This document shows positions 5,749 through 34,461 of a DNA stretch of 64,000 nucleotides, in pieces. The position numbers and the translations under genes are program-made. The notes under the pieces were generated by a model. It saw only the letters and a list, made by a program, of their open reading frames with translations, searched no databases and was not told the DNA's origin. The DNA comes from Minisyncoccota bacterium (GTDB lineage: Bacteria > Patescibacteriota > Minisyncoccia > Phycocordibacterales > CAIZLB01), in the NCBI GenBank assembly GCA_021734945.1, contig JAIPIA010000002.1:45594-109593 (forward strand), given 5' to 3'. The stretch's first letter is position 1. Each line of letters opens with the position of its first letter.

Positions 5749-5887
5749 TTATGCATGTATATAAATAATGATATATCGTGACCCAGTAGGGCTCATGATA
5801 ATTTTATTTATTTAATTTGAGTAGAGTCGCTTCCTGCAGGATAGCAGTCTCACGGAAACCGATGCAAAATCAATATGAGGAAATCTG

Positions 5888-8031: not shown

Positions 8032-8297
8032 GTATTAATTATACCAGACAAGTCAGAAGTAAATCCTTAATAAACCCTAATTATTTGATTTATTTCAACC
8101 TTCATATATTCTTCACAATTATAGGTAGATAATGTGTATACTCTTACTAATAACCTACGGAACAGCCACGCAGGTCGAGCCAAATAGGACGGAGGCTCGA
8201 CACGATTCCGCAGAATCGGACATCGTGCAGTGCCAAGCACCAACTTGAGGTTCGTACCGAGTATGACCTTGCTAGGTCACATAATTTACAAAATCAT

Positions 8298-8960
8298 ATG
8301 AAAATACTCATTGTGGAAGATGAAATAAAGTTAAATAAAGCACTTGCTGTAGGTCTGCAGAACCATGGCTATGCTGTTGAATCAGCATTTGATGGAGAAG
8401 AGGGTGAGAAACTCGCCCGTATCAACACGTACGACTTAATATTGCTCGACGTTATGATGCCTAAACGAGATGGAGTTGAGGTATGCAAAAATCTGCGTAA
8501 AGCTGGCAAAACTACGCCTATACTTATGCTAACTGCCAAAGATGCAATCGAAGACCGAGTCAATGGACTCGATGCTGGCGCAGATGATTATCTCATTAAA
8601 CCGTTTGCTTTTGAGGAACTCATCGCTCGCGTTCGCACCCTATTTAGACGAGCACCACTCACATCAACTGATGTGCTTGAATTGGATGATCTTCATCTCG
8701 ACACAAGAACACAGCGAGTTACAATAAGTACAAAAGAAGTAGAACTTACTCTTCGTGAATATGCACTGCTCGAATATTTTTTGAGAAATAAAGATACAGT
8801 ACTTACACGTGGAGACCTACTTGAACATGTATGGGATATCAACTATGATTCACTCAGTAATGTAGTCGATGTACACCTTAAAAATCTAAGAAAAAAATTA
8901 CCGAAAAAATATGCATCGAGAATCAAAACAATTTGGGGTAAAGGCTACAAACTCGTTTAA
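8298..8960 (+). CDS. OmpR-family two-component response regulator
   Basis: Receiver domain (LLDVMMPKRDG, phospho-Asp context) plus winged-helix C-terminus (TLREYALLEYFLRN...GYKL). Confidence 0.9.
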   Translation: MKILIVEDEIKLNKALAVGLQNHGYAVESAFDGEEGEKLARINTYDLILLDVMMPKRDGVEVCKNLRKAGKTTPILMLTAKDAIEDRVNGLDAGADDYLIKPFAFEELIARVRTLFRRAPLTSTDVLELDDLHLDTRTQRVTISTKEVELTLREYALLEYFLRNKDTVLTRGDLLEHVWDINYDSLSNVVDVHLKNLRKKLPKKYASRIKTIWGKGYKLV

Positions 8961-10101
8961 AAGGAGTTTTAACCAATCCCTCTTAAAGTTATCCTTTTTA
9001 TATGGAACAATATTAGTAGCCATACTTTTTATTTCTGGCTTAGTAACGTTCGATGAATTTTCGAGTAGAATCGGCAGACGATTTAAAGATGTCCCACCGA
9101 CTATTACTATCCAACTTCCAAACGGTGACCGCATTGTAAATAGACCTACAGGAGTAAGTTCACAACAATTCTCAGTGAGTACAAGTGGCATACAGTTTTT
9201 TGCAACACAGACAAGCGGGCAATTTCCGTTAAGGGCGGTGCCTGAGAGAAACAGAGGTCAATTGCCGACAGCTGAGGATATTCGAAACGACCTTATTGCA
9301 GCTCTTATATTTGTAAATGGAATACTACTTTTAGTTGCAAGTGTTGCAAGTTATTGGCTTGCACGTAGCACTCTCCGTCCAATACGCGACTCGTATGAAA
9401 GACAACGACGCTTTTTAGGAGATGCTTCACACGAACTGCGTACACCACTCAGCATCTTACAAATCGAGCTCGAAAACGAAATGCATAATGCAGATGAAAA
9501 ACAAAAAGAGCAAATCACTAGTAAGCTTGAAGAAGTTAGACGTATGAGTAAACTTGTAGGAGATCTTTTGACGATATCAAGACTCGATGAAGACAAACAG
9601 ACTAGACCGAATCAAAAGAAAAATATTGATACCAAAAAATTTGGAGAACTGGTGGGCAGTATAACTGACCGTCTATCTACGCTAGCAAAGTCACACAATG
9701 TAACTCTGACACTTCACAACAAGATTTCCGAACAAAGTAAGCTACTAATTCCACTTGATGAGGAACTCTTTACTCACGCGATCACAAATTTAATTCAAAA
9801 TGCAATCTTTTACAATAAAAAAGATGGAACAGTTGATGTCACTATAATCGATGAGAGTAAAAAAATTAGTATTGAAATTAAAGATTCAGGTATAGGTATA
9901 AGTAAGGAAGATCTAGAAAAGATATTCGACCGCTTTTATCAAGCAGACAAAAGTCGTACTAGAAAAAATACGCCAAATGAAGGTAGTGGTCTTGGACTAT
10001 CTATCGCAAAATCTGCCTTACTCTATATGGGTGGAAATCTCGAAATCAAAAGTGAGCTCAATATTGGCACGACAGTTCAAGTTAAAATTAAGACCGTCTA
10101 A
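8911..10101 (+). CDS. Sensor histidine kinase (HisKA plus HATPase_c)
   Basis: H-box ASHELRTPLSIL. N/G boxes (NLIQNAIFYN, GSGLGLSIAKS). N-terminal TM segment. Overlaps the response regulator gene by 50 bp, so the true start may be downstream. Confidence 0.85.
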   Translation: MHRESKQFGVKATNSFKRSFNQSLLKLSFLYGTILVAILFISGLVTFDEFSSRIGRRFKDVPPTITIQLPNGDRIVNRPTGVSSQQFSVSTSGIQFFATQTSGQFPLRAVPERNRGQLPTAEDIRNDLIAALIFVNGILLLVASVASYWLARSTLRPIRDSYERQRRFLGDASHELRTPLSILQIELENEMHNADEKQKEQITSKLEEVRRMSKLVGDLLTISRLDEDKQTRPNQKKNIDTKKFGELVGSITDRLSTLAKSHNVTLTLHNKISEQSKLLIPLDEELFTHAITNLIQNAIFYNKKDGTVDVTIIDESKKISIEIKDSGIGISKEDLEKIFDRFYQADKSRTRKNTPNEGSGLGLSIAKSALLYMGGNLEIKSELNIGTTVQVKIKTV

Positions 10102-10306
10102 CTTCATTGCTTGTATTTCAAATTAAGCGCCTCACCTTCACAGTTAATTCATAATCAATTTACTATACTCTACTTACAGTCTACATATGAGATTGTAAAT
10201 TACTCATTAACGTACATATAGAAATTTGTTCAAACCAAACTGTGAAATACGATATTTTAAAATATCTTAAAAATCGCAGTTTAGTTTACGCAGTTTCACA
10301 AATAAA

Positions 10307-21302: not shown

Positions 21303-21836
21303 CTATTTTAAACCCAATTTATCCTTAATAGACACAAGGTTAAACATATCTTTATTTTTTATATGGACGATAGATAAGTTTGAACTTCTTGCAACATCAT
21401 CAACAAATATATCCCTTTCGATTCTATCTTGCCTATCATGAGTTACATCATCTAGCTCTATTATAAGTAGTGGATTGAAATATGGTTTACTGAATATTAC
21501 AAAATCTACCTTCTTCTTATTTATTTTATTATTATAAGTCTTGAACAAATGCTCATTCTTTTTAACCTCCACGAGAGCACTCAATACAACCTGTGGAACA
21601 ATGTAGAAATTATTGTTAATAAGAACTTCAAGTTGTTGATAGAATACCCATTCAGCCTTTGTCATTAAATATTTTTTCTTCACATAAGGCAATATTTCTT
21701 GCGCAGGCAAAGCTTTCTCAACATCAACATGGGAGATTTTTACCGAAACCTTTGCGTATGAGACTAGCGCAACAAAAACAAATAAAGCGAAAATAATTAT
21801 AGGTAAAAATGTAGACATATCTTGATTATACAACAA
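21303..21836 (-). CDS. DUF2726-domain protein (restriction-endonuclease-like fold) with N-terminal TM
   Basis: LMTKAEWVFYQQLEVL ... KVDFVIFSK ... PLLIIELDDVTHDRQDRIERDIFVD matches the DUF2726 pattern. Confidence 0.55.
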   Translation of the reverse strand: MLYNQDMSTFLPIIIFALFVFVALVSYAKVSVKISHVDVEKALPAQEILPYVKKKYLMTKAEWVFYQQLEVLINNNFYIVPQVVLSALVEVKKNEHLFKTYNNKINKKKVDFVIFSKPYFNPLLIIELDDVTHDRQDRIERDIFVDDVARSSNLSIVHIKNKDMFNLVSIKDKLGLK

Positions 21837-22506
21837 ACCCTAACTCCCCTAATCTCGCCAAAGCTTTTTCCATGAAATAAATCCAATGGTCGTTATCTTT
21901 ATTCTCATTGCGAGCATTCATATCAGCGAGTAGTTCATCGGCACTTACCCATACGAGAGAAAATGTTTCGTGTTCTTCGAGTTCAACAGGATGTACGTCA
22001 GCGCTTTTGAGAATTATCAAAAGACATGTTGCGTGAGCTACGCGATTCACATTTCGCAAACTGTTGTGATAATGAGTGAGTGCTTGGCCAATAACTTCAA
22101 TTTGTGCGAAATCATAGAGACCACTCTCCTCTCGCACTTCTCGGAGTATTCCTTCCATGATGTCCTCATCTGCACTTACACCGCCTGAGAATAGTCGAAG
22201 TGCGCCGTTTGAGGATGTAGACGCCGGTTTTGATGTCGTGTTAGTAGGTGCAGTGTTTTGTGTGTCAGGCAATATAGTGCTTTGTGTAGGTGCTGGATCT
22301 TCTGGTGCTACGGACATAGGTGCAGTAGCGAGCGCAATTATAGGCGCGACTTTGTGATATTGTTTGCCAACCGCAAAAAGTTTTGTAGCAGGATCATACA
22401 CAATTCCACAACCACCATCACGTCGCTCTTCGTTTTCGCGTGGTGTGCCGAATTCTTTTATTGAGGGGTTTTGGATTTGAGACATATTATTTATTAGGAT
22501 TTTCAA
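21826..22506 (-). CDS. NUDIX hydrolase with a Pro/Thr/Ala-rich insertion of about 50 aa
   Basis: Nudix box GGVSADEDIMEGILREVREESGL. Start overlaps the upstream gene by 20 bp and the stop overlaps the downstream gene by 11 bp. Confidence 0.7.
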   Translation of the reverse strand: MKILINNMSQIQNPSIKEFGTPRENEERRDGGCGIVYDPATKLFAVGKQYHKVAPIIALATAPMSVAPEDPAPTQSTILPDTQNTAPTNTTSKPASTSSNGALRLFSGGVSADEDIMEGILREVREESGLYDFAQIEVIGQALTHYHNSLRNVNRVAHATCLLIILKSADVHPVELEEHETFSLVWVSADELLADMNARNENKDNDHWIYFMEKALARLGELGFVV

Positions 22507-23170
22507 TTATTAACTTTCTCCATCCCATTATGTTTGTCAAAATTGTATCTTTACATTTTTCAATATCTTTGTATTCACCATCGTATGGTAACCGTGCAAA
22601 ACCTTTAAACTCGTCTTTTTTAAGACTCAGTATTCTATCTTCTAAAACAACAACAATATTTTCATTATCTTCGTAAGCAGTACATACAATTGCCGTTTGA
22701 ATACCAGAAACTTTCTTAATTCCGAATTGTTGCAAAAAATTTATTTGATCTTCATTGGCAATAATTGATACGAGTTTTGGTCTTGCCCCACCAAAATAGC
22801 TGTGGTTAGCAGGAAATAGATAAATTGAAAAAACATAAACAAAAAATATAGAGACTACAATGGTACAAAGAAATCTAATAAAATTAGAAATCTCTCCTTT
22901 TTCTGCAAATATAGGAGATATTGTGATATGGAAAAATTTTAATAATCCATTTATAATTTCAATTATCAACTTCGCAAAACCATATAGTCCTATGTAAGTC
23001 AGAATAAAGCATGTGCCAGTAAGTATATAAATTCCTTGAAATAAATTTGGAGTAACCCCAAGAAACTGCAGATATATATTCCATACAAAAAATCCTAGAC
23101 CATATGCAGAGGTTGCATATATAGCTAATGACTTACCTATTAATTCAATCTTTTTCTCTATATTTGCCAT
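22487..23170 (-). CDS. Polytopic membrane protein, hypothetical
   Basis: 227 aa with 5-6 hydrophobic helices. Immediately downstream of hsdR. Confidence 0.4.
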   Translation of the reverse strand: MANIEKKIELIGKSLAIYATSAYGLGFFVWNIYLQFLGVTPNLFQGIYILTGTCFILTYIGLYGFAKLIIEIINGLLKFFHITISPIFAEKGEISNFIRFLCTIVVSIFFVYVFSIYLFPANHSYFGGARPKLVSIIANEDQINFLQQFGIKKVSGIQTAIVCTAYEDNENIVVVLEDRILSLKKDEFKGFARLPYDGEYKDIEKCKDTILTNIMGWRKLIIENPNK

Positions 23171-23219
23171 GTATTTAGATATAATAATATAGAAATAGAG
23201 TTTTTACACAAGATATGCT

Positions 23220-26200
23220 CTAAGCCCTCTCAACAGCAAACAACTCAGCCTGCTCAAGGACTGTCTCAGTAGCAGACTCTTGAAAATCTGGCGGGTAACC
23301 ATACTGATTTAGTAGTCTTTTTACCATTACACGCATACGTGCACGCGCTGATTCTCGAACGCTCCAATCTATAGTGGCGTTTTCCTGTACTTTTCCGACC
23401 AAGATTCGGGCGAGTTCTTTTAACTTGTCGTCACCAAGCACTTTCTCAGCACTTTCATTTTGAGCAAGTGCATCATAAAATGCAATCTCATCCTTAGATA
23501 GACCTAGTAAATCCCCTCTTTTATCAGCTTCTTTGATATCTTTTGCAAGTTTAATCAACTCTTCGATAACTTGTGCCGCAGTTAGCAAGTTGTTTTGATA
23601 TCTTTTAATAGCTGCGTGCAACATTTCTGAGAACTTTCTTGCTTGCACTGCGTTCATTTTACTTCTACCACGAAGCTCATCGTTCAAAATCTTCTTTAAA
23701 AGTTCAAGACTAATATTCTGGTGTTTCATCGTTCGTATTTCTTCCAAGAATTCTTCTGACAAAATAGAAATATCAGGTTTCTTGATTCCTGCAGCATCAA
23801 AGATATCTACCACTCCATGCGACACTACCGCCTTATCCACAATCTGTCGGATAGTCGATTCAACATCTATATCTCGTGAACCACCATCGCTTGCCAACTT
23901 TATCAATCGAGCTTTTACCGCTTGGAAAAATGCTACTTCTTCTCGAATAGCAATAGCTCTTGGGTTTGGCATTGCTAATGCAAAAAGCTTTGAGAGTGCT
24001 ATTACCTCTTTTATAAATCTTTCTTTTCGATTATCACCAGCACGTACATCAAGCAAAAACTCTTCTGTTTCAAGAATGGCTCGAAGCTTTGTCTGCGCAT
24101 CATTGATTAGCACTACTTCTTTTGGTGTAGATCCCTTTATATAGTCGTATGAAAGGCCATCTAAGATACCGTATATCGTTTCCAGTTTACCGAGCATATG
24201 TGGTACGACGTCAGTATTTTGTTCAGTGACCATCTCACCTTTTCCTCCACTCTCTGTGTATACAGCAAGAGCCTCTTTCAGGTCTGATGCGATACCAATA
24301 TAATCAACAATCAATCCTCCCGGCTTATCCTTAAATACTCGATTCACTCTCGCAATTGCCTGCATGAGGTTTGCACCCTGCATCGGCTTATCAATATACA
24401 TAGTGTGCATGCATGGCACATCAAAACCCGTGAGCCACATGTCTCGAACAATCACCAACTTGAGTTCGTCTTTTGTGTCTTTAAATCTATTTGCCAAATC
24501 CTTACGATCATCTTTAGTTGTATGATGCGGCTGAAACTCTACAGGATCAGAGGAAGTCGCAGTCATTACAACTTTGAGCGCCCCACCAGTTTTTGCATCA
24601 CTATGCCATTCTGGTTTGAGTGCAATAATCGCATTGTATAGATCTACCGCAATACGTCGACTCATAGCAACAATCATTGCTTTTCCATCAAAAGCTTCCT
24701 GTCGAGCTTCAAAGTGAGTGACGATGTCTTGTGCAATGTCAGCAACACGTGCACCATGTCCGACTACCGCTTCAAGCTGTGCCCATTTTGCTTTGGCTTT
24801 TTCGCTCACAGTAGATTCTTCGCTTTCTAATATTTCATCTACAGTTCTATCTAGCTGTGCTTTCGCTCCTTCATTGAACTCAAGCTTTACCAGTCTTGAT
24901 TCATAACTAATAGGCACCGTTGCACCATCCTCTACCGCCGCTTTAATGTCATACACATCAACATATTCACCAAAAACATTTCTAGTATTCGCATCTTCTT
25001 TCTCAATAGGTGTTCCAGTGAATCCAAGGAATGATGCATTCGGTAATGCATCACGAACATACTTTGCAAATCCATAACTTACATATGCTCCACCCTCATT
25101 TTCACGCACTCTCGCAGTAAATCCATACTGTGAACGGTGTGCTTCATCAGCCATTACTATAATATTTGAACGATCTGAAAGTGCCTCATATTCCACCTCA
25201 CCTTCCATCAATGAAAATTTCTGTATTGTTGTAAATATTACTCCACCTCCATTTGTAGCCAAAAGTTTTCGGAGATCTGCCCGATCTTGTGCCTGCACAG
25301 GGTCTTGTCGAAGTAAATCTTTTGCACCAGCAAATGTATCAAAAAGTTGTTGATCGAGATCATTTCTATCTGTAAGAACTACGATGGTTGGATTGTTAAG
25401 TTGCTGAACAATTTTTCCAGCATAAAACACCATAGACAGTGACTTTCCTGATCCTTGAGTGTGCCATACTACTCCAGCTCGTTTATCACTCCTTATCGCT
25501 TGTATAGTTGAATTGATGGCTTTTTGTACTGCAAAATACTGATGGTATGCAGCTGTCTTTTTGATAGTCTTCATTTCAAGTGATCCATCAGAAAGTGTTT
25601 TCTTTTCAACTTCAAAGACAGTGAAATTTCGAATGAGATCAAGTAACACTTGCGGATGAAGCATACCTTGTACAAGTGTTTCAATTTGTGGAGTTGTTCG
25701 ATTTGCATCACGAGTACCATTGATAGACTTCCATGCTAAGAATCGATCGAATCCACTTGTAATAGTTCCTGTACGCGCATCAAGTCCATCTGAAATAACT
25801 AACAATCCATTGTATGCAAATAAATCTGGAATAGCTTTTTGGTAGTTTGTGAGCTGGGTAAATGCCTTATGAACAGTTGCCTCTTCATTCTTTGCGTCTT
25901 TGAGTTCTATGACCGCAAGTGGTAATCCATTCACAAAAAGTACAACATCAGGAATCTTATCTCGTTCCAGTCCTTTTATATAAAATTGATTTGTAGAAAT
26001 GAGGTCATTCTCAAGAAAATCATTCCACTCAATAATCTGGACATCCTTACCTCTCATGTGACCATCTTCGAGCACTTCTACTTTTACACCTTCGACAAGT
26101 AGCTTGTGCATAGCTCGGTTGTTCTCTACGACGTTGTCAGTCAATGATGCAGTACGGAGTATTTCATTGACCGCAAATATGCAAACATCCTGCGATAGGT

Positions 26201-26363
26201 TTGGATTAAGATTGGTCACAGCAGACATAAGGCGATCCTTGAGAACTACCTGCGATAGATCTGGACGTTCTGGCTCTAATGCTTCAGGACTTACATAAAC
26301 AAAGCCGACTTTTCCAAGAAGTTCGAGTGTAAGCTGTTCAATTGAGGATTCGTTGAGGGGCAT
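23220..26363 (-). CDS. hsdR: Type I restriction enzyme R subunit
   Basis: 1047 aa. HsdR N-terminal domain, SF2 helicase motifs ([15 protein letters not shown]), C-terminal domain. Confidence 0.95.
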
Positions 26364-26488
26364 GTGTGTATGTGGTCAGAGTACCACACTTTTTGTAGAG
26401 GTGGAAGGTTTGAATTTTTTACCTCTCCATGCAAATTAGATTTAATATTCTTAATCTCAAAATTTGAACAGCTAAACAATATACTAAA

Positions 26489-26761
26489 TTACCAATTTCT
26501 TTTGAAATGCCAACTCTCAAAATTCTTATATTCAAACTCCTTATAATCAATAGGATTAAATAGTTCGTTAGACACGATAACAGATGAAACATCCCTCAAG
26601 AAAGTTTTTTTAGCGTGCATTCCTTCTGGGCTATCTACTGATACATAATAAATTGAATATCCATTAAAACCATCATCCGGATTTTCTCCACAATCTAGCG
26701 GTATACATTTCCGTGCCTTAGAATTACCATCTTTGTCTGTAATTATTAGCCCTAGAATCAT
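26489..26761 (-). CDS. Small hypothetical protein between hsdS and hsdR
   Basis: 90-aa ORF with no motif recognised. Position suggests co-transcription. Confidence 0.3.
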   Translation of the reverse strand: MILGLIITDKDGNSKARKCIPLDCGENPDDGFNGYSIYYVSVDSPEGMHAKKTFLRDVSSVIVSNELFNPIDYKEFEYKNFESWHFKRNW

Positions 26762-26824
26762 TTTTTATTAATTCCATTTTTAAATTCTTGTTTTAATTGT
26801 TCTTGATTTTGCATTTTAAATTAA

Positions 26825-27997
26825 TTAACTTGTAAATATAACACCTAATAATTTATCTCTCAGTCTTGACAGTGTCTGAATTTCTAAAAAATTATTGAAA
26901 ACTTTTTCATCTGTAGAAATGATAATTTGATTAAATCCTTCCTGAATTTCTCTAGATGGAACAATGACTTTAATATTCCTGAAATCATCCTTATTAATTG
27001 AACCAAACACCGTACCGCCTGCTTCAAATTTTTGAATATCTGATTGAGTATTTTTCATCATGTAGAAACAGAAAGATTTGAGATCTGAAGATACACCAGC
27101 AACACCTCGACCAAGACAGCATACTTCGGTTGCTTGATTTATATCACCGACAGGGGCCCTTACACTAACCAATACATCAAACCTATTCGCGGTCCTTTTT
27201 GGCTCAGTCGTATAGAGACGAACAGATGGAAAACGATTACCGAAATCAGTACGACCTTGATAGAAAATAATTCCTTCTCCATCTTCATTATAACTTTCAC
27301 CAGATGGTGACTGTCCCATAGTAATCTTAAATAACTCGCCCAACTTTCCAAGCCCCCACCCTTCCGGCAAACCGTTCACTATCTCCACATCCTCGTGTCC
27401 ATGGAATCGAAAATTGACAAACCACTCCTGAAACAAAGTCTGTGCCATTTTCTCAAGAGTTGTATTCTCACGACGAAGAAGTTCAATTTTATCGTCGAGG
27501 GAGCAGAGGATCGAAGCTATTTCCTTTTGTTCTTCTATGAGGGGAAGTCTAAATTGTTTATTTGCTAATATGTCTGTTTGTACACGCTGTCTCCCTGATG
27601 TCCCCGTCATAGATCTAATTGCAATGTTTCGGAAAAAAGGAGAAATTATAAAGTAATAAATAAATTTCGAATCACTTACATGCTCTTTTTCACGAAAGAC
27701 AAGATATTCAGTTGAGCCGAAGCCAACCTGATCATTCTCAAGAAAATCGACAAAAGCAGTCTTACCATTTTCTAGACATGGAGTAATACGAGCCATCAAT
27801 GTATCTCTATTTTTAAACTTTTGCCCTCCATTAAATTCTTTAAGCTCAAAGCTTGAAACCTGTCTTGTGAATGGATTGATTTTTTCCATCGGTAGATATG
27901 GAGCTATATTTTTTTTGGGAATTTTTTCAATTGGATTGATTTGCAAAAAACTTGAGAGCCTTATATCTTTCCAATTCTCACGTGATGATATGTTCAT
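26825..27997 (-). CDS. hsdS: Type I restriction-modification specificity subunit
   Basis: 390 aa. Two target-recognition domains separated by conserved coiled-coil repeats (LPLIEEQKEIASIL..LDDKIELL). Confidence 0.85.
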   Translation of the reverse strand: MNISSRENWKDIRLSSFLQINPIEKIPKKNIAPYLPMEKINPFTRQVSSFELKEFNGGQKFKNRDTLMARITPCLENGKTAFVDFLENDQVGFGSTEYLVFREKEHVSDSKFIYYFIISPFFRNIAIRSMTGTSGRQRVQTDILANKQFRLPLIEEQKEIASILCSLDDKIELLRRENTTLEKMAQTLFQEWFVNFRFHGHEDVEIVNGLPEGWGLGKLGELFKITMGQSPSGESYNEDGEGIIFYQGRTDFGNRFPSVRLYTTEPKRTANRFDVLVSVRAPVGDINQATEVCCLGRGVAGVSSDLKSFCFYMMKNTQSDIQKFEAGGTVFGSINKDDFRNIKVIVPSREIQEGFNQIIISTDEKVFNNFLEIQTLSRLRDKLLGVIFTS

Positions 27998-28001
27998 AAT
28001 A

Positions 28002-28568
28002 TTATTCAGAAGTTATTTTATAGATACCCTGCCCGATTGAATATAAACAAAAAAGCACCGTAGCAGTTATTATAAATAGAACAGTTTCCTTGCAAAAAAT
28101 ATGATTTGAAAACGCAAGCGAAATAATACAAACACTTATCACACAAAAATTAAAGATTAAAATAAACTTTAATTTTCCTAAAATATCGGACTTTTTATTT
28201 ATATGTTCTCTGTATAAATTCTCAGTGAAAAAATCAATGGAATAGTTTATTAGAGTATCACTCCGTACGGTGCTCTGAATACCAACTCTAGAGGGATCAT
28301 TGGTTTTAATCTTTACTAATTCAGAAAACTTTCTTAAAATCTTCGAATCAGGCATTGTGTATAAAACCCCTAGACTAATCGGTTCATAATCTTTTGTATT
28401 AGCTGCAGCATAAGAATATAATTTTATAACCGCTAATCTTGTCTCAGATAGTATTTTCTCAAAATCTTGTATCTTCCAAACCACAAAAACGGCAAATAAT
28501 CCCGCGAGCGCGGCAAGGACTTGAGCTGATGTACTTAATGTATAAAACCAAATATTATTAAAATCCAT
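28002..28568 (-). CDS. Membrane protein of unknown function inside the type I R-M operon
   Basis: 188 aa. TM helix at the N-terminus and two at the C-terminus. 4-bp gaps to both neighbours. Confidence 0.4.
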   Translation of the reverse strand: MDFNNIWFYTLSTSAQVLAALAGLFAVFVVWKIQDFEKILSETRLAVIKLYSYAAANTKDYEPISLGVLYTMPDSKILRKFSELVKIKTNDPSRVGIQSTVRSDTLINYSIDFFTENLYREHINKKSDILGKLKFILIFNFCVISVCIISLAFSNHIFCKETVLFIITATVLFCLYSIGQGIYKITSE

Positions 28569-28572
28569 ATAT

Positions 28573-28767
28573 TTATTTCTTCTTCACCCCATACTTCGGT
28601 TCAGTCTCTCTATCTGCAAGTTCCTTACCTGACCAACGACCAATTCGCACCTTACAATCATTACAAAGTATTTCGCTGACTCCATCGTACGCATCAGGAG
28701 TACCTGGCACATACTGCACCATTATAATATTTTCACTTTTACATTTTTTACAAGTTTGTTTTTCCAT
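28573..28767 (-). CDS. Small zinc-ribbon protein (CxxC ... CxxC)
   Basis: 64 aa with CKKCKS and CNDCKV pairs. Confidence 0.45.
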   Translation of the reverse strand: MEKQTCKKCKSENIIMVQYVPGTPDAYDGVSEILCNDCKVRIGRWSGKELADRETEPKYGVKKK

Positions 28768-28775
28768 AAAATATA

Positions 28776-29390
28776 TTAGGAATTAATTTTTAATAATCGT
28801 AACTGCTCGACTAGCAGATATACCGTTGTGAATGGATCTCGCTTGAGAGGTGACTCTGTTCCATCTTTAGTATACTGTTTTTCCAAATTCTTAGCATTAC
28901 GCATTGCATCAAATTCTCGCCCCTTCACCAGAGAATACATGTCGATATTTTTCTCATATTTTCGACCGATATGCTTGGTGAGTTTCCCTGCAAATGCATC
29001 ACGGCCAAGTGATGTTTGTAAAAATTCGAAGTGGAGAATAAACCACAACTCAAAGCATTCATTAGAATACGCTACCTGTATACCATTATCTCGTGCCAAC
29101 CGTATTGAACGATCAAAATGCTCGTGATCATCCCGATCAAAGACAACCCACCATTCTGTTTCAAAAGTGGATTTGTGATTTGAACTTTCAGCATCCTTTT
29201 CTTCCATCACATATTTTACGAGTGACTGGGTACTTCGACTCGTCGGATGAATCTGAATATCAATCTGTGTTAAACCCAACTCATCCTTAATAGCTCCAAA
29301 ATAATTAGGTTCAGTTTTTTCTCCTTCAGTATAGATACGAATAACCTTTTTAGGTTTCAAATTACTTGGTTTTCGCGGGAACCTATTCAT
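28776..29390 (-). CDS. RloB-like (AbiLii-type, Toprim-like) protein
   Basis: IRIYTEGEKTEPNYF N-terminal signature plus WWVVFDRDDHEHF and AYSNECFELWFILHF blocks characteristic of RloB. Confidence 0.8.
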   Translation of the reverse strand: MNRFPRKPSNLKPKKVIRIYTEGEKTEPNYFGAIKDELGLTQIDIQIHPTSRSTQSLVKYVMEEKDAESSNHKSTFETEWWVVFDRDDHEHFDRSIRLARDNGIQVAYSNECFELWFILHFEFLQTSLGRDAFAGKLTKHIGRKYEKNIDMYSLVKGREFDAMRNAKNLEKQYTKDGTESPLKRDPFTTVYLLVEQLRLLKINS

Positions 29391-29392
29391 GC

Positions 29393-30640
29393 TTATTTTA
29401 GAACTGAACGGATAAATGGTAATGCTCCGAATCGACCTTCGAGATACTTTTTTGAAAACTCAGTATCATTTCGTATATCAAACTCTCCAAGAGAAAAGAG
29501 CTTACTACCATCAAACTCATCTTTCTCTGTGAACCAAAATTGATCTTTTATAAAATCATCCTTGTATGACAAAAGGCTCGTATCGTGTGTTGTTACGATA
29601 AGTTGTGCACCATTTTTATTCATTTCTTCTGACTCAAAGAGATCTATTATAAACTTGGTTAATTTAGGGTGGAGACTATTATCGAATTCATCAACAATCA
29701 TAATCTTACCGTTTTGGAGAGTATCTATGACTGGACCAAGTACAGAGACAAACTTTTGTGTACCAGTAGATTCCTTATCGAAAGGAACCTCGAATGACCC
29801 CGTCACCTTATGGTCATCATCATGAACTGGATGCTCAAAAAAGAGCATGTTACTTTTTTGTTTTGTAGCTGAAGCAGAGAACTCACCAAAATTATTTTTA
29901 ACATTAATTGCAGGACGTTCTACTTCCTCTGATCTTCCATTAATAATACAAAAATCTGCATGTTTGAGATACGTCAGGATTTGCTCTTTATATACAAGAT
30001 CAGTAGCAAATTTCTTAGCAGTAAAATCTTGATAGGTTTGGTAAGCAACACCAGATATAATATTCAAGCCGTCCCTAATTGCATTAAGAATAGATAAAGA
30101 CATCTGATCGTTCCATTGTGCAGCTACCGAGAGAAATAAAGTCTCCTTGCGCATCTTTTTTACGAGATCCTTATCAATGCTTTTATCCAAAACGATATCC
30201 TGTCCATTTCTCACAAAGAGCTCTTCTGTATTTCCATTTGCTAAAACCTTTACAAAAGACTCTTCAACAATATGATCTTTTACAAATGAAAAGAAATATA
30301 GATAGGTACCGTCATATTTGCCGTCAATAGAAAATGTGAACCAAAAAGATGTAGGTTTCTTTTGTGTAGTAGCTGATCCCGAAAATGGAGTATACGGCAA
30401 CTCCGCATCCACAGGATTATTTGAAGAAAGCATAATCCCGTTTTTCATAATAGTAAGAGCCTCCAGAATAGTAGTCTTTCCTGAAGCATTCGGACCATAA
30501 ATGAAAGAGGTTTTGAGTAGATTTTCACCGTTACTTTCAAAGGTATGGCGGTCGTTTTTTCGAGCAACCATTGAAAAAGTAGCCTTATTTTTAAAGGTTT
30601 TAAAGTTTTCGAGAGAGAATTCAATAAGTGAAATTTGCAT
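29393..30640 (-). CDS. AAA_21/ABC-like ATPase (RloA / AbiLi-type)
   Basis: Walker A GPNASGKTT, Walker B IMIVDEFDNSLHP, QLIVTTHD. A 3-bp gap to the RloB gene. Confidence 0.8.
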   Translation of the reverse strand: MQISLIEFSLENFKTFKNKATFSMVARKNDRHTFESNGENLLKTSFIYGPNASGKTTILEALTIMKNGIMLSSNNPVDAELPYTPFSGSATTQKKPTSFWFTFSIDGKYDGTYLYFFSFVKDHIVEESFVKVLANGNTEELFVRNGQDIVLDKSIDKDLVKKMRKETLFLSVAAQWNDQMSLSILNAIRDGLNIISGVAYQTYQDFTAKKFATDLVYKEQILTYLKHADFCIINGRSEEVERPAINVKNNFGEFSASATKQKSNMLFFEHPVHDDDHKVTGSFEVPFDKESTGTQKFVSVLGPVIDTLQNGKIMIVDEFDNSLHPKLTKFIIDLFESEEMNKNGAQLIVTTHDTSLLSYKDDFIKDQFWFTEKDEFDGSKLFSLGEFDIRNDTEFSKKYLEGRFGALPFIRSVLK

Positions 30641-30853
30641 ATATTTTGCTATTTATTTCTTTAATTACTCTTAAAGTATACATATTTGAAACAAATTTGC
30701 AAGTTTTTTACATATTTTAATTATTTAACATTATCCAAAACTCTCATTTAACATCGATTCCATTTGACCCTTATAAAATAAGGATTAAATAGAATTATGT
30801 AAAAATATTATCTATCACGACTCCAATATCAATTAATATCAGATAGTATTAGA

Positions 30854-32431
30854 TTACAACTCAATCCCCACCTTCGCCAGCTGCTTCTTTATTTCCTCAT
30901 TCAACCTCACCTCCTCAGCCATCTGTTCCTTGAGCTCTGCTGTCAATTTTGCCATCTTTTCTTCAAATGGAACACCATCGTCTATAGCATCTGTGATACC
31001 AACGTATCGTCCCGGAGTAAGCACATAGTTATGCTTTTGAATATCAGCTATTGTTGCAGATTTTGAAAACCCTTTTTTGTCTTCATAGGCACCACCTGTT
31101 CGCCATTCGTGATATACCTTTGCAATCATTGCCACATCATTATCTTCAGGATCAATTGAGCCATCAGAAAATTCTCGATGTGTTCTGTCAGCCATAAATC
31201 CAACTTCTGATGCATCAATAAACAACACCTCATCTGCTTTTTTACGATCAGTGTTTCCTACTCTCTTTCTTGATAAAAACCAAATACACGCTGGAATACC
31301 CGTATTGTAAAAAAGTTGTTTTGGAAGCATTACAATACAATCAACAAGATTTGCATCGACAAGCGCTTTTCGAATATCCCCTTCTCCACTTGATTGTGAT
31401 GAAAGTGAACCATTTGCAAGTACTGTTGCCATTATACCGTTTGGCGACAAGTGATACAGCATGTGCTGAATCCATGCAAAGTTAGCATTACCTGTTGGCG
31501 GTTTACCATATTTCCATCGAGGATCATTTTGTAGTAGTTCACCACTCCAATCAGAGATGTTGAATGGTGGATTCGCGAGGATATAGTCCGCTTTTAGATC
31601 TTTGTGTTCATCTTTAAGAAACGATCCTTCTGTATTCCATTTAATACCTGTACCATCAATTCCTCGAATCGCCATATTCATACGTGCAAGTCGGTATGTC
31701 GTCTGATTACTTTCTTGTCCATACACCGCAATATCATCTACACGACCAGAATGTGCTGTAACGAATTTTTCAGACATAATAAACATTCCTCCAGAACCAC
31801 AGCACGGGTCATAGATTCGCCCTTTGTACGGTTCAATCATTTCTACCATCAGTTTTACAATTGATTTCGGAGTATAGAACTGTCCTCCTTTTTTACCTTC
31901 TGCATTTGCAAATTCTCCTAAGAAATATTCATATACACGACCAAGTAAATCTTTTGCTTTTGAAGCAGTATCGCCAAGTGAAATATTGCCGATCAAATCG
32001 ATCAATCCACCAAGAGAATTTTTATCAAGATTTGGTCGAGCAAATACTTTTGGAAGGATCCCCTTAAGCTCTGGGTTTAGTTTTTCGATATGTTCCATCG
32101 CCATGTCGAGATCTTCACCAATAGTAGGAAGTTTGGCTCGTCCATGGAGATAGCTCCATCGTGCCTCCTTTGGTACATAAAACACATGTTCAGCACGATA
32201 TTCATCAATGTCTTCAGGATTAGCCCCTTGTGATTTTTGATCTGAAAGTTTCTGATAGAGTTCCTCAAATGAATCTGATATGTATTTTAAAAATACAAGA
32301 CCAAGAGCTACATTTTTATATTCTGCAGCATCAATGTTTTTACGTAATTTATCAGCAGCTTTAAAAAGCTGTTTTTCGAAGGGTTCTGTTTTGTTTCCAA
32401 CTGTTTTACCCCCGGCCGGACGATCTTTCAT
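30854..32431 (-). CDS. hsdM: Type I restriction-modification N6-adenine DNA methyltransferase subunit
   Basis: HsdM N-terminal domain. AdoMet motif DPCCGSGGM. Catalytic LANPPFN. Confidence 0.95.
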
Positions 32432-32479
32432 ATTGCTACCATGGTAACATTTTTTGAGGCAAAGATGAATCTACAACCC

Positions 32480-33031
32480 CTACACCTCAAACTCATGTAT
32501 CGAAACATTCCCGAAGCCCTTAATCTTGTGGTCTGGATACAAAGCATACAGCGTTCGCAGTACTCCACCATGTGTCACAACGAGCGGCCGCGAGTTACTG
32601 TGATTCGTAGTCAAATGATTGATAAAATCTTGAATTCGAGCTCGAGTTTCTTCTTCAGTTTCACCTCCATAAGGACTAAAGTCAAATCCTGTAGAAGTAT
32701 TCCAAATTGAATGATTTAGGCCTCCTTCAGTTATTTGATTCACTTCGTCCCATGTTTTATTTGAAAGTGCCCCGAATTCCCTTTCTAAAACTCCATCATG
32801 ATGGGATACAGACAAATCTCTCAATTTTGCAAATTCACGAGCAGTTTGTGAAGCTCTTTTAAGTGGTGATGCGAATACCATATCGTATTCAAGATTAGGG
32901 AAATTAGAAGAAGCAACTCGGACCACTTCAGATAGACCCTCTTCACTGAGTGGTTCATCATTAGAGCGACTCATTATTCGACCAAGCTTATTAGACGCAG
33001 TGGCGCCATGTCGTACAAATATAATTTTCAT
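32480..33031 (-). CDS. Histidine phosphatase (phosphoglycerate mutase-like) family protein
   Basis: IIFVRHGATASN RHG motif. Second His in VVTHGGVLR. Confidence 0.8.
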   Translation of the reverse strand: MKIIFVRHGATASNKLGRIMSRSNDEPLSEEGLSEVVRVASSNFPNLEYDMVFASPLKRASQTAREFAKLRDLSVSHHDGVLEREFGALSNKTWDEVNQITEGGLNHSIWNTSTGFDFSPYGGETEEETRARIQDFINHLTTNHSNSRPLVVTHGGVLRTLYALYPDHKIKGFGNVSIHEFEV

Positions 33032-33206
33032 GTAGTCGCTATTATATCAAAAATATTTTTAATTCTAAAAGACCCTCACCCTCTTTTAACGCATCGTGTG
33101 CCCCCAAACAAAAAACCCCGGCGAACCGAGGCTCTTTGTGGAGAGTAGGGTTCGTCGAGGCGGATATAGTGTATTGGAGACAATCGGATGACAACGATCA
33201 AATAGA

Positions 33207-33572
33207 TTATTCTTCTTTGATCAAATCACTGAGCGTACCTTCTGACAACATTGATCCTTCCGCTGAAATGCCATAACCGCAACGCAAAACGTACGAAAAC
33301 GCAGCGGCAAGACAGGCAGGATTTACACATGACCTAATTTCAAACATAACACGATCTAACCTACCGTCTTTAACAACAAACACTGCCAAGTTCGTCCGGC
33401 AATTAAAACAATTAATTGGCAGATTTCCATCCTTCGGCATATCCACGATTCGAATATCAATTCCCTTAGCAGTTTCCCGATCATTCATGAATCCATACAT
33501 ATAAAAAGAGAGGTTGAAGTTGATGTGACGGTTATAGTTAGCAAAATGCCAAATTAGAGCATTTACCAACAC
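33207..33572 (-). CDS. Hypothetical protein
   Basis: 121-aa ORF, Cys-containing, no motif recognised. Confidence 0.3.
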   Translation of the reverse strand: MLVNALIWHFANYNRHINFNLSFYMYGFMNDRETAKGIDIRIVDMPKDGNLPINCFNCRTNLAVFVVKDGRLDRVMFEIRSCVNPACLAAAFSYVLRCGYGISAEGSMLSEGTLSDLIKEE

Positions 33573-33681
33573 TTAGATTTCAAAAGCAGCTATTAAGCCA
33601 CAAACTGTATTTAGTCAGTATCCTAGCACAAGGCACGTTCTAGTAAAGCCTTAAAATATAAACCTCAAACCCACACACTCC

Positions 33682-34461
33682 TTACTGCTCCTCTTCTTTT
33701 TCCTTCAAATGTTTCGCATATTTTCTAAGATCCTCGCCTTGATCAATATAACTTTGTCGTTTTAGCCGCATTGCAATATCCTCCATTTCCTCAGGAGAGA
33801 GAAGATTAATTTCAGCTTGTTCAGAATGAGCATGATATCTCAAAAACTCACGGGCAAAATTTTTATATACATCTAAATCATACGCCTCAAGTATTTTTCT
33901 TGAAATATCTCTAAAGACTTCAGGTGACTCAGGCATCACATGACTATGAATCATCTTATAGAGAAGTGAGAGAGAATTTTCATCATTACGCTGAATATGA
34001 TTCCCGAGTGATCGGTATAATGAATTAAAAAAACCTTCTGGTATATTTCCCATATATTTGATACGAGAGAATAATGCACCAAATGTTTGCATCATACCTT
34101 CTGCGATATGATCATCTGCATGATATTTCCTGAGCATTAATTTATATTCTTCATCACTCATGTCTGGACGCTCATGCATAGAAGGAGGTTCAACAGGTTC
34201 ATATCCAGGAGTTTTAAAATAACCAATTTCACCCAACTTTTCTACACAATCAATAACAGCTTCATAATCTTCCATATCAAGTTCTTGACGGATAGTACCT
34301 CCATTTTGGGCTGCCTCAGCTGCAGCGTATATCTTTGTTTTAAGATTAGCTGCTATTTCTTCTAGTTTATCGTTCAATAATGTTCTCTCAAACAGATTCG
34401 GATCTTGCGAAAGCGATTCCGGTGTACCAATTTGTGGATATGATAATGCTTCTGGATTCAT
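33682..34461 (-). CDS. Hypothetical protein
   Basis: 259-aa acidic ORF with good coding statistics. No motif recognised. Confidence 0.4.
   Translation of the reverse strand: MNPEALSYPQIGTPESLSQDPNLFERTLLNDKLEEIAANLKTKIYAAAEAAQNGGTIRQELDMEDYEAVIDCVEKLGEIGYFKTPGYEPVEPPSMHERPDMSDEEYKLMLRKYHADDHIAEGMMQTFGALFSRIKYMGNIPEGFFNSLYRSLGNHIQRNDENSLSLLYKMIHSHVMPESPEVFRDISRKILEAYDLDVYKNFAREFLRYHAHSEQAEINLLSPEEMEDIAMRLKRQSYIDQGEDLRKYAKHLKEKEEEQ

Follow-up and report, generated by a model that had tools for sequence, protein, structure and literature searches.

An intact AbiL/RloAB-type cassette, in which an ABC-type ATPase gene is followed by a gene for an RloB-family protein, is lodged between hsdM and hsdS of a type I restriction-modification (R-M) operon of Candidatus Pacebacteria (Patescibacteria/CPR). 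Judged from its profiles, motifs and gene order, the pair is intact and an ordinary representative of the known AbiL/RloAB family. We consider it probable (roughly 0.7) that it acts as an autonomous, toxin-antitoxin-like abortive-infection cassette, with an ATPase that would restrain a nuclease, a promoter of its own and probable autoregulation. As a defence pair it is routine, since the family is already present in Pfam, PADLOC and NCBI annotation. It is a documented case of an intact AbiL-type module in Patescibacteria/CPR, where close relatives are numerous; the antiviral repertoire of these episymbionts with reduced genomes has received little study. The R-M operon in the window (the whole 64-kb stretch of DNA analysed) is complete, with full-length hsdM, hsdS and hsdR on a common strand according to Pfam and PADLOC profiles. 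The genes are:

30854..32431, minus strand: hsdM, type I methyltransferase, 525 aa (N6_Mtase E 6e-107, HsdM_N E 1.4e-25, PADLOC MTase_I E 4e-199)
30641..30853, minus strand: AT-rich spacer of 213 bp from hsdM to the ATPase gene, without a terminator-like site on the minus strand
29393..30640, minus strand: AbiLi/RloA-like ABC-type (AAA_21) ATPase, 415 aa (Pfam AAA_21 E 1.9e-27, AAA_15 E 2.8e-13; PADLOC AbiLi E 2e-84)
28776..29390, minus strand: AbiLii/RloB-family protein, 204 aa, presumed Toprim-type nuclease effector (Pfam RloB E 1.6e-42; PADLOC AbiLii E 2.8e-26)
28573..28767, minus strand: orf64, zinc-ribbon-like protein of 64 aa (C6xxC9...C35xxC38), no family match in profile searches
28002..28568, minus strand: orf188, membrane protein of 188 aa with three transmembrane helices predicted from hydropathy, directly upstream of hsdS
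26825..27997, minus strand: hsdS, type I specificity subunit, 390 aa (Methylase_S in two stretches, PADLOC Specificity_I E 3e-80)
23220..26363, minus strand: hsdR, type I restriction subunit, 1047 aa (HSDR_N, SWI2_SNF2, T1RH-like_C, PADLOC REase_I E 0)

Read along the minus strand, the order is hsdM, 213-bp spacer, ATPase, RloB, orf64, orf188 and hsdS, and the genes are separated by 2 nt (ATPase-RloB), 8 nt (RloB-orf64), 4 nt (orf64-orf188) and 4 nt (orf188-hsdS). An earlier reading of the same DNA, made from the sequence only, had placed the ATPase (30640..29393) and RloB (29390..28776) genes correctly on the minus strand between hsdM and hsdS and had given the exact length of the AT-rich gap at 30641-30853, while its 3-bp gap between ATPase and RloB is 2 nt by our count. 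The pair is indeed inserted between hsdM and hsdS, but it is not the whole insert, orf64 and orf188 having been overlooked. The larger composite island proposed in the same reading is documented weakly: hsdR is followed by three overlapping genes, coding for a 227-aa protein of unknown family, a NUDIX protein and a DUF2726 protein, and none of these matches any known defence model. ARAGORN detected no tRNA gene across the window and, therefore, there is no tRNA-linked island border. A repeat search gave no convincing direct repeats around the insert, and Rfam found no RNA families in 22000-34000 at E <= 0.1. A further open reading frame, orf90 (26761..26489), is practically without homologues and may be no gene.

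The ATPase scores 97.6 bits against Pfam AAA_21, for a cut-off of 27, and all its nucleotide-binding motifs are intact:

30496-30473, minus strand: Walker A, GPNASGKT
29773-29756, minus strand: signature-like motif, ESTGTQ
29704-29681, minus strand: Walker B, IMIVDEFD
29605-29582, minus strand: H-loop, QLIVTTHD

Residues G49, N51-K55, E290, S291, G293, T294, D317, E318, H324, Q346 and H352 are conserved in at least 90% of 76 homologues. The Walker A, Walker B and QLIVTTHD peptides singled out earlier were recovered at these coordinates. The profile checks suggested in the sequence-only reading were run, and the result that was to count against it, an ATPase of the ABC transporter or SMC family with a partner other than RloB, did not appear, because the ABC-transporter and SMC scores are far under their cut-offs; AAA_21, RloB, AbiLi and AbiLii were all matched. 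The best transporter model, FtsE, reaches 27.4 bits against a cut-off of 264.85, with other transporter models scoring less, and SMC_N reaches 27.6 bits against 40. Assignment to MADS was likewise rejected (NF047739, 21.8 bits against a cut-off of 420; PADLOC mad3 E 4.5e-12 versus AbiLi E 2e-84). Searching public assemblies for the exact ATPase sequence gave no match, and a PDB sequence search with it gave no meaningful match.

Three motifs characterize the RloB protein:

29342-29298, minus strand: IRIYTEGEKTEPNYF with E22/E27, the peptide already quoted in the sequence-only reading
29150-29124, minus strand: WVVFDRDDH with D85xD87
29075-29028, minus strand: VAYSNECFELWFILHF

This protein scores 146.4 bits against Pfam RloB (PF13707; cut-off 31.5), covering profile positions 3-195 of 195, and an identical protein is named 'RloB family protein' by NCBI. 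With a score so far above the cut-off, and with conservation of the Toprim-type E and DxD residues here and across RloB homologues, its earlier assignment to the RloB family holds. RloB has been placed in the Toprim superfamily, with catalytic E and DxD residues (PMC12065111). The label 'Toprim-like' is used here on the strength of motif layout and published analyses, our own fold searches being non-discriminating: a Foldseek comparison of the RloB model with the PDB, which does not discriminate for the Toprim fold, yielded no match at E <= 0.001, a PDB search with the RloB profile yielded no meaningful match, and none of 36 RloB family members scanned with Pfam matched Toprim, OLD or DUF4435 at E <= 10.

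By PADLOC and Pfam models, the pair resembles AbiL of Lactococcus lactis and RloA/RloB of Campylobacter in that an ABC/AAA_21 ATPase gene precedes an RloB-family gene. No Lactococcus plasmid was among the matches at E <= 1e-3. The two genes are adjacent and in this order in 79 of 80 related loci from many phyla, the 80th being cut by a contig end; this order and the profile matches uphold the AbiL/RloAB identity proposed from the letters. The location within an hsd locus is shared with Campylobacter as well, although the C. jejuni M1 pair lies between hsdR and hsdS and the present one between hsdM and hsdS. What differs from AbiL/RloAB is the uncultured CPR host and the presence of two unrelated small genes in the same slot. 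PARIS (AriA/AriB) is similar in having a separate ABC ATPase and a Toprim-type effector, where the ATPase is likely a sensor or antitoxin restraining a nuclease, and the site of our pair inside a type I R-M operon makes a conceptual link to anti-restriction sensing. However, the PARIS effector carries DUF4435 (PF14491), whereas the effector here is RloB, and DUF4435 is found in 0 of the 36 RloB members scanned. PARIS was thus rejected as an assignment, the ATPase scoring 281 bits with AbiLi versus 98 bits with the generic AriA/AAA_21 model of PADLOC. In OLD class 1 proteins (P2 Old, Ts OLD) and in class 2 or Gabija GajA, the ATPase and Toprim domains are fused, whereas here they are separate genes; the two distinct ORFs and their neighbours (hsdM, orf64, orf188 and hsdS, with no GajB-type helicase partner) led us to discard OLD class 1 and Gabija too. 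PrrC/EcoprrI is a latent anticodon nuclease inside a type I R-M operon and is comparable in this respect. PrrC has its ATPase domain within one polypeptide, together with a nuclease domain different from RloB.

The position of the pair could also mean that it is not autonomous but serves the adjacent type I enzyme as a functional accessory, for instance as a back-up that fires when an anti-restriction protein inhibits the R-M complex, comparable to PrrC with EcoprrI or to the response of PARIS to Ocr. Its place between hsdM and hsdS and its tight downstream coupling to hsdS are consistent with this, as is the identical placement in a related genome (L020), which likewise has the layout hsdM-ATPase-RloB-hsdS and in which RloB and hsdS overlap by 4 nt. 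The sequence-only reading had appealed to RloA/RloB pairs inside type I R-M operons, and there is precedent, rloA and rloB residing in Campylobacter hsd loci (PMC2928727). PARIS, the architectural relative, senses the anti-restriction protein Ocr (PMC11464382). We nevertheless find an accessory role unlikely. The hsd genes occur within 10 kb in only ~5 of the 80 related loci, which makes location in an R-M operon no more than occasional, and the cassette is the sole cargo of very small, mobilizable E. coli plasmids of 3.9 kb. The pair in the window and that in L020 share 59-60% identity, compared with 81% for hsdM and 76% for hsdR, and thus the pair is not simply co-evolving with the enzyme. 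In addition, a promoter of its own travels with the cassette to every setting. The relevant elements in the spacer are:

30675..30702, minus strand: candidate promoter, with -35 TTGCAA at 30702-30697, a 16-nt spacer and -10 TATACT at 30680-30675, 34 nt upstream of the ATPase ATG
30698..30712, minus strand: operator-like palindrome TGTAA-AAAAC-TTGCA (TGTAAAAAACTTGCA), overlapping the -35 hexamer

A scan for consensus promoters lists this site, but by itself performs at chance level in such AT-rich DNA (30 sites versus 25.7 expected). The suggestion that the spacer carries its own promoter is backed by comparison: in 10 CPR loci the TTGCAA and TAtAaT hexamers are in register, (near-)invariant and a constant number of nucleotides away from the start of the ATPase gene, within unrelated upstream sequence, and most of these loci are outside any R-M operon. 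The cassette would accordingly be transcribed from a sigma-70-like promoter of its own in the 213-bp spacer. Since no terminator is seen and the genes that come next are only 2-8 nt apart, this promoter probably also feeds orf64, orf188 and hsdS.

The palindrome is conserved too. Of 78 loci, 47 have a palindrome of this form ahead of the ATPase gene, compared with 62 of 424 control upstream regions (p = 3e-16), and perfect ones are found in 20 of 78 versus 4 of 424 (p = 4e-14), the loci in both comparisons being not phylogenetically independent. In general terms the element is ~15 bp long, has the form xG-nnn-(A/T)5-nnn-Cx and overlaps the promoter or the transcript start. Its half-sites vary by clade: CPR bacteria have TGTAA/TTGCA; Clostridia, Ignavibacteria and others have TGAGA/TCTCA; streptococci and enterococci have CGAGA/TCTCG; and Calothrix has TGTGA/TCACA. 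Within the 64-kb window an exact match to TGYAAWWWWNTTRCA is found once, at the palindrome itself, and the operator pattern with one mismatch allowed is not enriched. The palindrome over the -35 hexamer is the probable site of autoregulation by a cassette protein, although no DNA-binding domain that could account for this is recognisable in the ATPase or in RloB. We tentatively propose, giving this somewhat less than even odds, that an operator not described before, specific to the cassette and with clade-specific half-sites, is a general feature of AbiL/RloAB. If the proposal is correct, the ATPase, RloB or their complex would be a sequence-specific DNA-binding autorepressor, comparable to those of type II toxin-antitoxin systems, and the regulated promoter would also feed hsdS, the specificity-subunit gene, whose expression would be tied to whatever state the abortive-infection cassette is in. 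The conserved palindrome offers a concrete handle on how AbiL/RloAB systems are restrained.

Such a palindrome also suits the classical autoregulation of type II addiction modules, and the pair might be a mainly selfish toxin-antitoxin unit that stabilises the DNA carrying it, whether an R-M island or a small plasmid, with no part in antiviral defence. In E. coli, an RloB-type protein of Clostridium algidicarnis shows toxicity that its AAA ATPase partner neutralises (PMC10440598), and the occurrence of the cassette on tiny mobilizable plasmids points in the same direction. Yet the founding AbiL of Lactococcus was isolated through its phage-resistance phenotype (PMC13064643) and the architectural relatives PARIS, Gabija and OLD are antiviral (PMC11464382), and addiction and defence are not mutually exclusive. 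A mainly selfish role is improbable in our view.

[quoted passage not shown] On our proposal, the ABC-type ATPase would bind the RloB/AbiLii nuclease and keep it inactive, serving as antitoxin and sensor in one. A phage-derived cue would alter the state of the ATPase, and the nuclease would be freed or activated. Cleavage of a cellular nucleic acid would follow and abort the infection; its most plausible target would be RNA of the translation machinery, as it is in PARIS. A nuclease acting as a DNase on phage or host DNA, as in Gabija/OLD, instead of as an RNase or tRNase, is possible but doubtful: AriB of PARIS, likewise a Toprim protein paired with a separate ABC ATPase, is a tRNA-cleaving enzyme (PMC11464382, PMC12409363), and the RloB family has its own conserved helical region at the C-terminus.

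The two small genes downstream of RloB are co-oriented with the pair, follow one promoter with gaps of 2-8 nt and both belong to real conserved families, as would be expected if the ATPase, RloB, orf64 and orf188 made up a single system of four components, including a membrane effector and a zinc-ribbon adaptor. The comparison of the 80 loci largely refutes this and makes it very improbable: orf64 and orf188 are absent from all 80 related ATPase-RloB loci, and L020, with its similar layout, lacks both. Relatives of orf188 occur without AbiL, and those of orf64 without AbiL or orf188. On their distribution, the two belong to small CPR-only families and are co-oriented hitch-hikers outside the AbiL cassette. 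A comparison of CPR type I R-M operons places varied cargo genes at the hsdM-hsdS and hsdS-hsdR junctions, namely AbiL, a 3-TM protein, a zinc-ribbon protein, HATPase_c_3, SLFN_AlbA_2 and PIN, so that the hsd junctions of CPR are slots filled by different cargo genes; counterparts of the cargo genes of other CPR type I operons were not found in the window. The 16 homologues of orf64 come, where the records are named, from unclassified or CPR-type MAGs and are located after Fic genes or near RadC and Phd/ParE. Nearly all named homologues of orf188 (n = 48) are from Patescibacteria, and in two of six other distinct contexts that were read the gene adjoins hsdS, directly upstream, without AbiL genes. 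Its predicted structure (pLDDT 89) matches only generic long-helix bundles, and its first helix, NIWFYTLSTSAQVLAALAGLFAVFVV, is strongly conserved.

The type I R-M operon of the window is read from the minus strand, as is every long ORF from 32431 to 23220, and its subunits HsdM, HsdS and HsdR are all full-length in profile searches. The sequence-only reading placed an AbiL-like cassette, an ATPase gene (AbiLi/RloA-like) followed by a RloB gene (AbiLii/RloB), between hsdM and hsdS. The cassette is indeed there, and the peptides quoted for it are found where expected, but two further genes, orf64 and orf188, lie in the same slot and had been overlooked. The sole numerical slip concerns the gap between the ATPase and RloB genes, given as 3 bp and measured as 2 nt.

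Genes of the type I operon in the window
32431..30854, minus strand: hsdM, 525 aa; gap to the ATPase gene 213 bp
30640..29393, minus strand: ATPase, 415 aa; gap to the RloB gene 2 nt
29390..28776, minus strand: RloB-family protein, 204 aa; gap to orf64 8 nt
28767..28573, minus strand: orf64, 64 aa; gap to orf188 4 nt
28568..28002, minus strand: orf188, 188 aa; gap to hsdS 4 nt
27997..26825, minus strand: hsdS, 390 aa; gap to orf90 63 nt
26761..26489, minus strand: orf90, 90 aa; gap to hsdR 125 nt
26363..23220, minus strand: hsdR, 1047 aa; last gene listed

Profile searches, the check named for the AbiL/RloAB assignment, bear it out. The ATPase matches PADLOC AbiLi (E 2e-84, 281 bits) and Pfam AAA_21 (E 1.9e-27, 97.6 bits, cut-off 27), as well as AAA_15. 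An ABC transporter (best model FtsE, 27 bits vs a cut-off of 265), an SMC protein (SMC_N, 27.6 vs 40 bits) and MAD3 (21.8 vs 420 bits) were rejected on their scores. The second protein matches Pfam RloB across the full profile (E 1.6e-42) and PADLOC AbiLii (E 2.8e-26). The pair belongs to a known family, of which it is an unremarkable and previously annotated member, found in a new host lineage; the NCBI entry identical to the window RloB, from a Candidatus Pacebacteria MAG, is named 'RloB family protein', and the source is accordingly a genome of the Patescibacteria. In an alignment of 76 ATPases from related loci, at least 90% retain Walker A (G49, N51-A-S-G-K55), the signature-like E290, S291, G293 and T294, Walker B D317 and E318, H324, Q346 and the H-loop H352, and the window ATPase has all of these conserved motif residues. 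Across 36 RloB homologues, E22 is nearly invariant and T26, E27, D85, D87, Y108, N110, E114, H120, Y145 and K147 are invariant. In the AlphaFold model of RloB (pLDDT 90.1, pTM 0.85), E22 lies just past strand 1 and D85xD87 ends strand 3, matching the Toprim layout published for RloB (PMC12065111). Fold and profile searches were little informative here: Foldseek with the model gave no match, and neither Pfam Toprim nor DUF4435 matched RloB even at E <= 10. The view of RloB as a Toprim nuclease is well supported, by motif layout and literature rather than by independent proof here.

The protein collection contains more than 900 RloB relatives, with Patescibacteria (CPR) contributing many. When one genome per species was scanned, 333 encoded RloB relatives emerged, from which 80 loci with 10-kb flanks were kept. 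An AbiLi-like ATPase gene lies directly 5' of RloB in 79 of the 80, the remaining locus being cut by a contig end, and the two genes therefore form a fixed cassette. The initial finding is real, and its interpretation, which the family profiles, intact motifs and gene order support, is essentially right. Embedding in a type I operon, also part of that interpretation, has a precedent in Campylobacter rloA/rloB (PMC2928727), yet is not the rule, since hsd genes occur within 10 kb of only about five of the 80 loci and other copies are on plasmids. The hsdM-ATPase-RloB-hsdS-...-hsdR layout is repeated in only one of these loci, that of Patescibacteria MAG REEB45 (L020), where RloB and hsdS share 4 nt and the gene for a 431-aa coiled-coil protein stands between hsdS and hsdR. 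Identity between the window and this locus is 81% for HsdM and 76% for HsdR, versus 59% for the ATPase and 60% for RloB. RloB relatives are carried by 75 plasmids, including mobilizable E. coli and Klebsiella plasmids of 3.5-3.9 kb whose sole cargo is the ATPase and RloB genes. The cassette is autonomous and mobile.

The 213-bp AT-rich spacer (30641-30853) had been suggested to carry a promoter of its own. A consensus scan yields a candidate there, although such a scan performs at chance level in the AT-rich DNA of the window (30 sites found vs 25.7 expected); the support comes instead from conservation. The 100 nt 5' of the ATPase start can be aligned in 10 CPR loci, most with unrelated upstream genes, and the TTGCA and T-A-A-T columns are invariant and in register, preceded by an invariant TG.AAA. 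This alignment supports a promoter that travels with the cassette.

Regulatory features predicted in the spacer
30702-30697 and 30680-30675, minus strand: candidate cassette promoter (consensus scan), -35 TTGCAA, 16-nt spacer, -10 TATACT
30712-30698, minus strand: conserved imperfect palindrome TGTAAAAAACTTGCA, overlapping the -35 hexamer

Between hsdM and the ATPase gene, the consensus scan lists nothing that resembles a terminator. Since nothing terminates transcription before hsdS, hsdS is probably expressed in part from the cassette promoter.

Among the 78 loci with enough upstream sequence, palindromes of the form xG-nnn-(A/T-rich 5)-nnn-Cx are found repeatedly, in many phyla, no more than 150 nt 5' of the ATPase start. 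Half-sites are clade-specific. CPR loci have TGTAA/TTGCA or TGTAA/TTACA, and often GTAAATAATTTAC as an additional copy immediately 5' of the ATG. TGAGA/TCTCA is shared by Clostridia, Ignavibacteria, Margulisiibacteriota, Verrucomicrobia and Pontiella. Streptococci and an Enterococcus have CGAGA/TCTCG, placed right ahead of GGAGG; Calothrix and a Flammeovirgaceae have TGTGA/TCACA, and Deltaproteobacteria and Haliangium TGCGG/CTGCA. The pattern is missing from the Nostoc group, and in the 3.9-kb E. coli plasmid L093 its place ahead of the ATPase gene is taken by another palindrome, TTTTCGC-N7-GCGAAAA. Against 424 upstream intergenic regions of other genes in the same loci, perfect palindromes are enriched (20/78 vs 4/424, Fisher p 4e-14), as are those with at most one mismatch (47/78 vs 62/424, p 3e-16), with the reservation that loci are not independent samples; shuffles or random windows would give about 0.1-0.3 perfect ones. 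The palindromes overlap the -35 hexamer or occupy the stretch from the -10 hexamer to the ribosome-binding site, positions that fit a DNA operator. Only the ATPase and RloB genes always accompany them; autoregulation by either product or by the two together, as in type II toxin-antitoxin operons, is the most economical reading. Neither protein has an evident DNA-binding domain, and we give this reading roughly one chance in three. Searches of the accessible literature on AbiL and PARIS turned up no operator of this kind, which does not prove it unreported.

AbiL confers abortive-infection-type phage resistance in Lactococcus by a mode of action that is still open (PMC13064643), and a toxic RloB-type protein of C. 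algidicarnis is neutralised by the AAA ATPase that partners it (PMC10440598). PARIS has a related architecture: its ATPase is a sensor that holds a Toprim tRNase and lets it go once the anti-restriction protein Ocr is sensed (PMC11464382, PMC12409363). For the cassette, whose family, intact motifs, fixed gene order and own promoter are shown here, the likely mechanism is that RloB would be restrained by the ATPase, released upon a phage cue, and would then cut RNA or DNA, stopping infection. As the cassette lies within a type I operon, a trigger of the anti-restriction kind is appealing, though unproven.

Orf64 and orf188 are absent from all 80 AbiL loci; they are not AbiL parts but separate hitch-hikers sharing its slot. 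Orf188 has three hydrophobic helices by hydropathy and belongs to a family of 48 proteins, nearly all of them from CPR, whose first helix hardly varies (W7, Y9, S12, T13, Q16, G23). Its AlphaFold model (pLDDT 89) is a long-helix bundle whose structural matches are generic helical bundles only. Orf64 is a CxxC...CxxC zinc-ribbon mini-protein with 16 relatives.

Orf188, orf64 and their relatives
Orf188: window 28002-28568 (minus strand); L001 8001-8570; L003 8001-8576; L006-L009
Orf64: window 28573-28767 (minus strand); L010 8001-8192; L011 4390-4581; L012 899-1093

Orf188 relatives lie directly upstream of hsdS without AbiL genes in two of six other distinct contexts read. The order is hsdM-207aa-orf188-hsdS-HATPase_c_3-hsdR in L001 and MTase-orf188-hsdS in L003/L004; other sites are after an integrase, after a 551-aa protein of no named family, next to ParE and before a RimK-like gene. 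Two orf64 relatives directly follow a Fic gene and one has RadC and Phd/ParE nearby, and orf64 may therefore act in defence or toxin-antitoxin islands, as a small partner or in the manner of an antitoxin. One of the relatives adjoins the heavily 'decorated' type I operon of L011.

CPR type I R-M operons compared
L001 5701-14958
L011 4998-12581
L020 7001-16207
Window 23220-32431

The hsdM-hsdS and hsdS-hsdR junctions of these operons hold differing cargo: a 207-aa protein of no named family with orf188, and HATPase_c_3, in L001; a 124-aa protein, SLFN_AlbA_2 and a 158-aa protein, then a 250-aa protein and PIN_12, with GmrSD_N upstream, in L011; AbiL and the coiled-coil protein in L020. Both junctions act as slots for insertions. 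Orf90 has next to no homologues and may be no gene at all; a search of 1.8 billion representative proteins yielded, apart from orf90 itself, only one 108-aa protein (30% identity) and a short repeated segment of a 1080-aa protein.

A promoter-like TTTGCA-16-TATAAT (28069-28096, minus strand; 10/12 matches) within the 3'-terminal part of orf188, some 70 nt 5' of where hsdS starts, may be an internal hsdS promoter, judged by consensus match only; TTTTTTGCAA, which precedes it, resembles half of the cassette palindrome. One Pontiella MAG contig (L083) carries two ATPase-RloB cassettes, 3806-5780 and 8274-10249, within about 5 kb. Very small ColE1-like mobilizable plasmids of E. coli, Klebsiella and Salmonella (e.g. 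L093, NZ_CP148421.1, 3915 bp) have an ATP-binding protein and RloB as their only cargo. Directly after hsdR, three overlapping ORFs (21303-23170, minus strand) encode a 227-aa protein without a family, a 226-aa NUDIX and a 177-aa DUF2726 protein; no PADLOC model fits any of them, and the trio may be a further defence-type operon.
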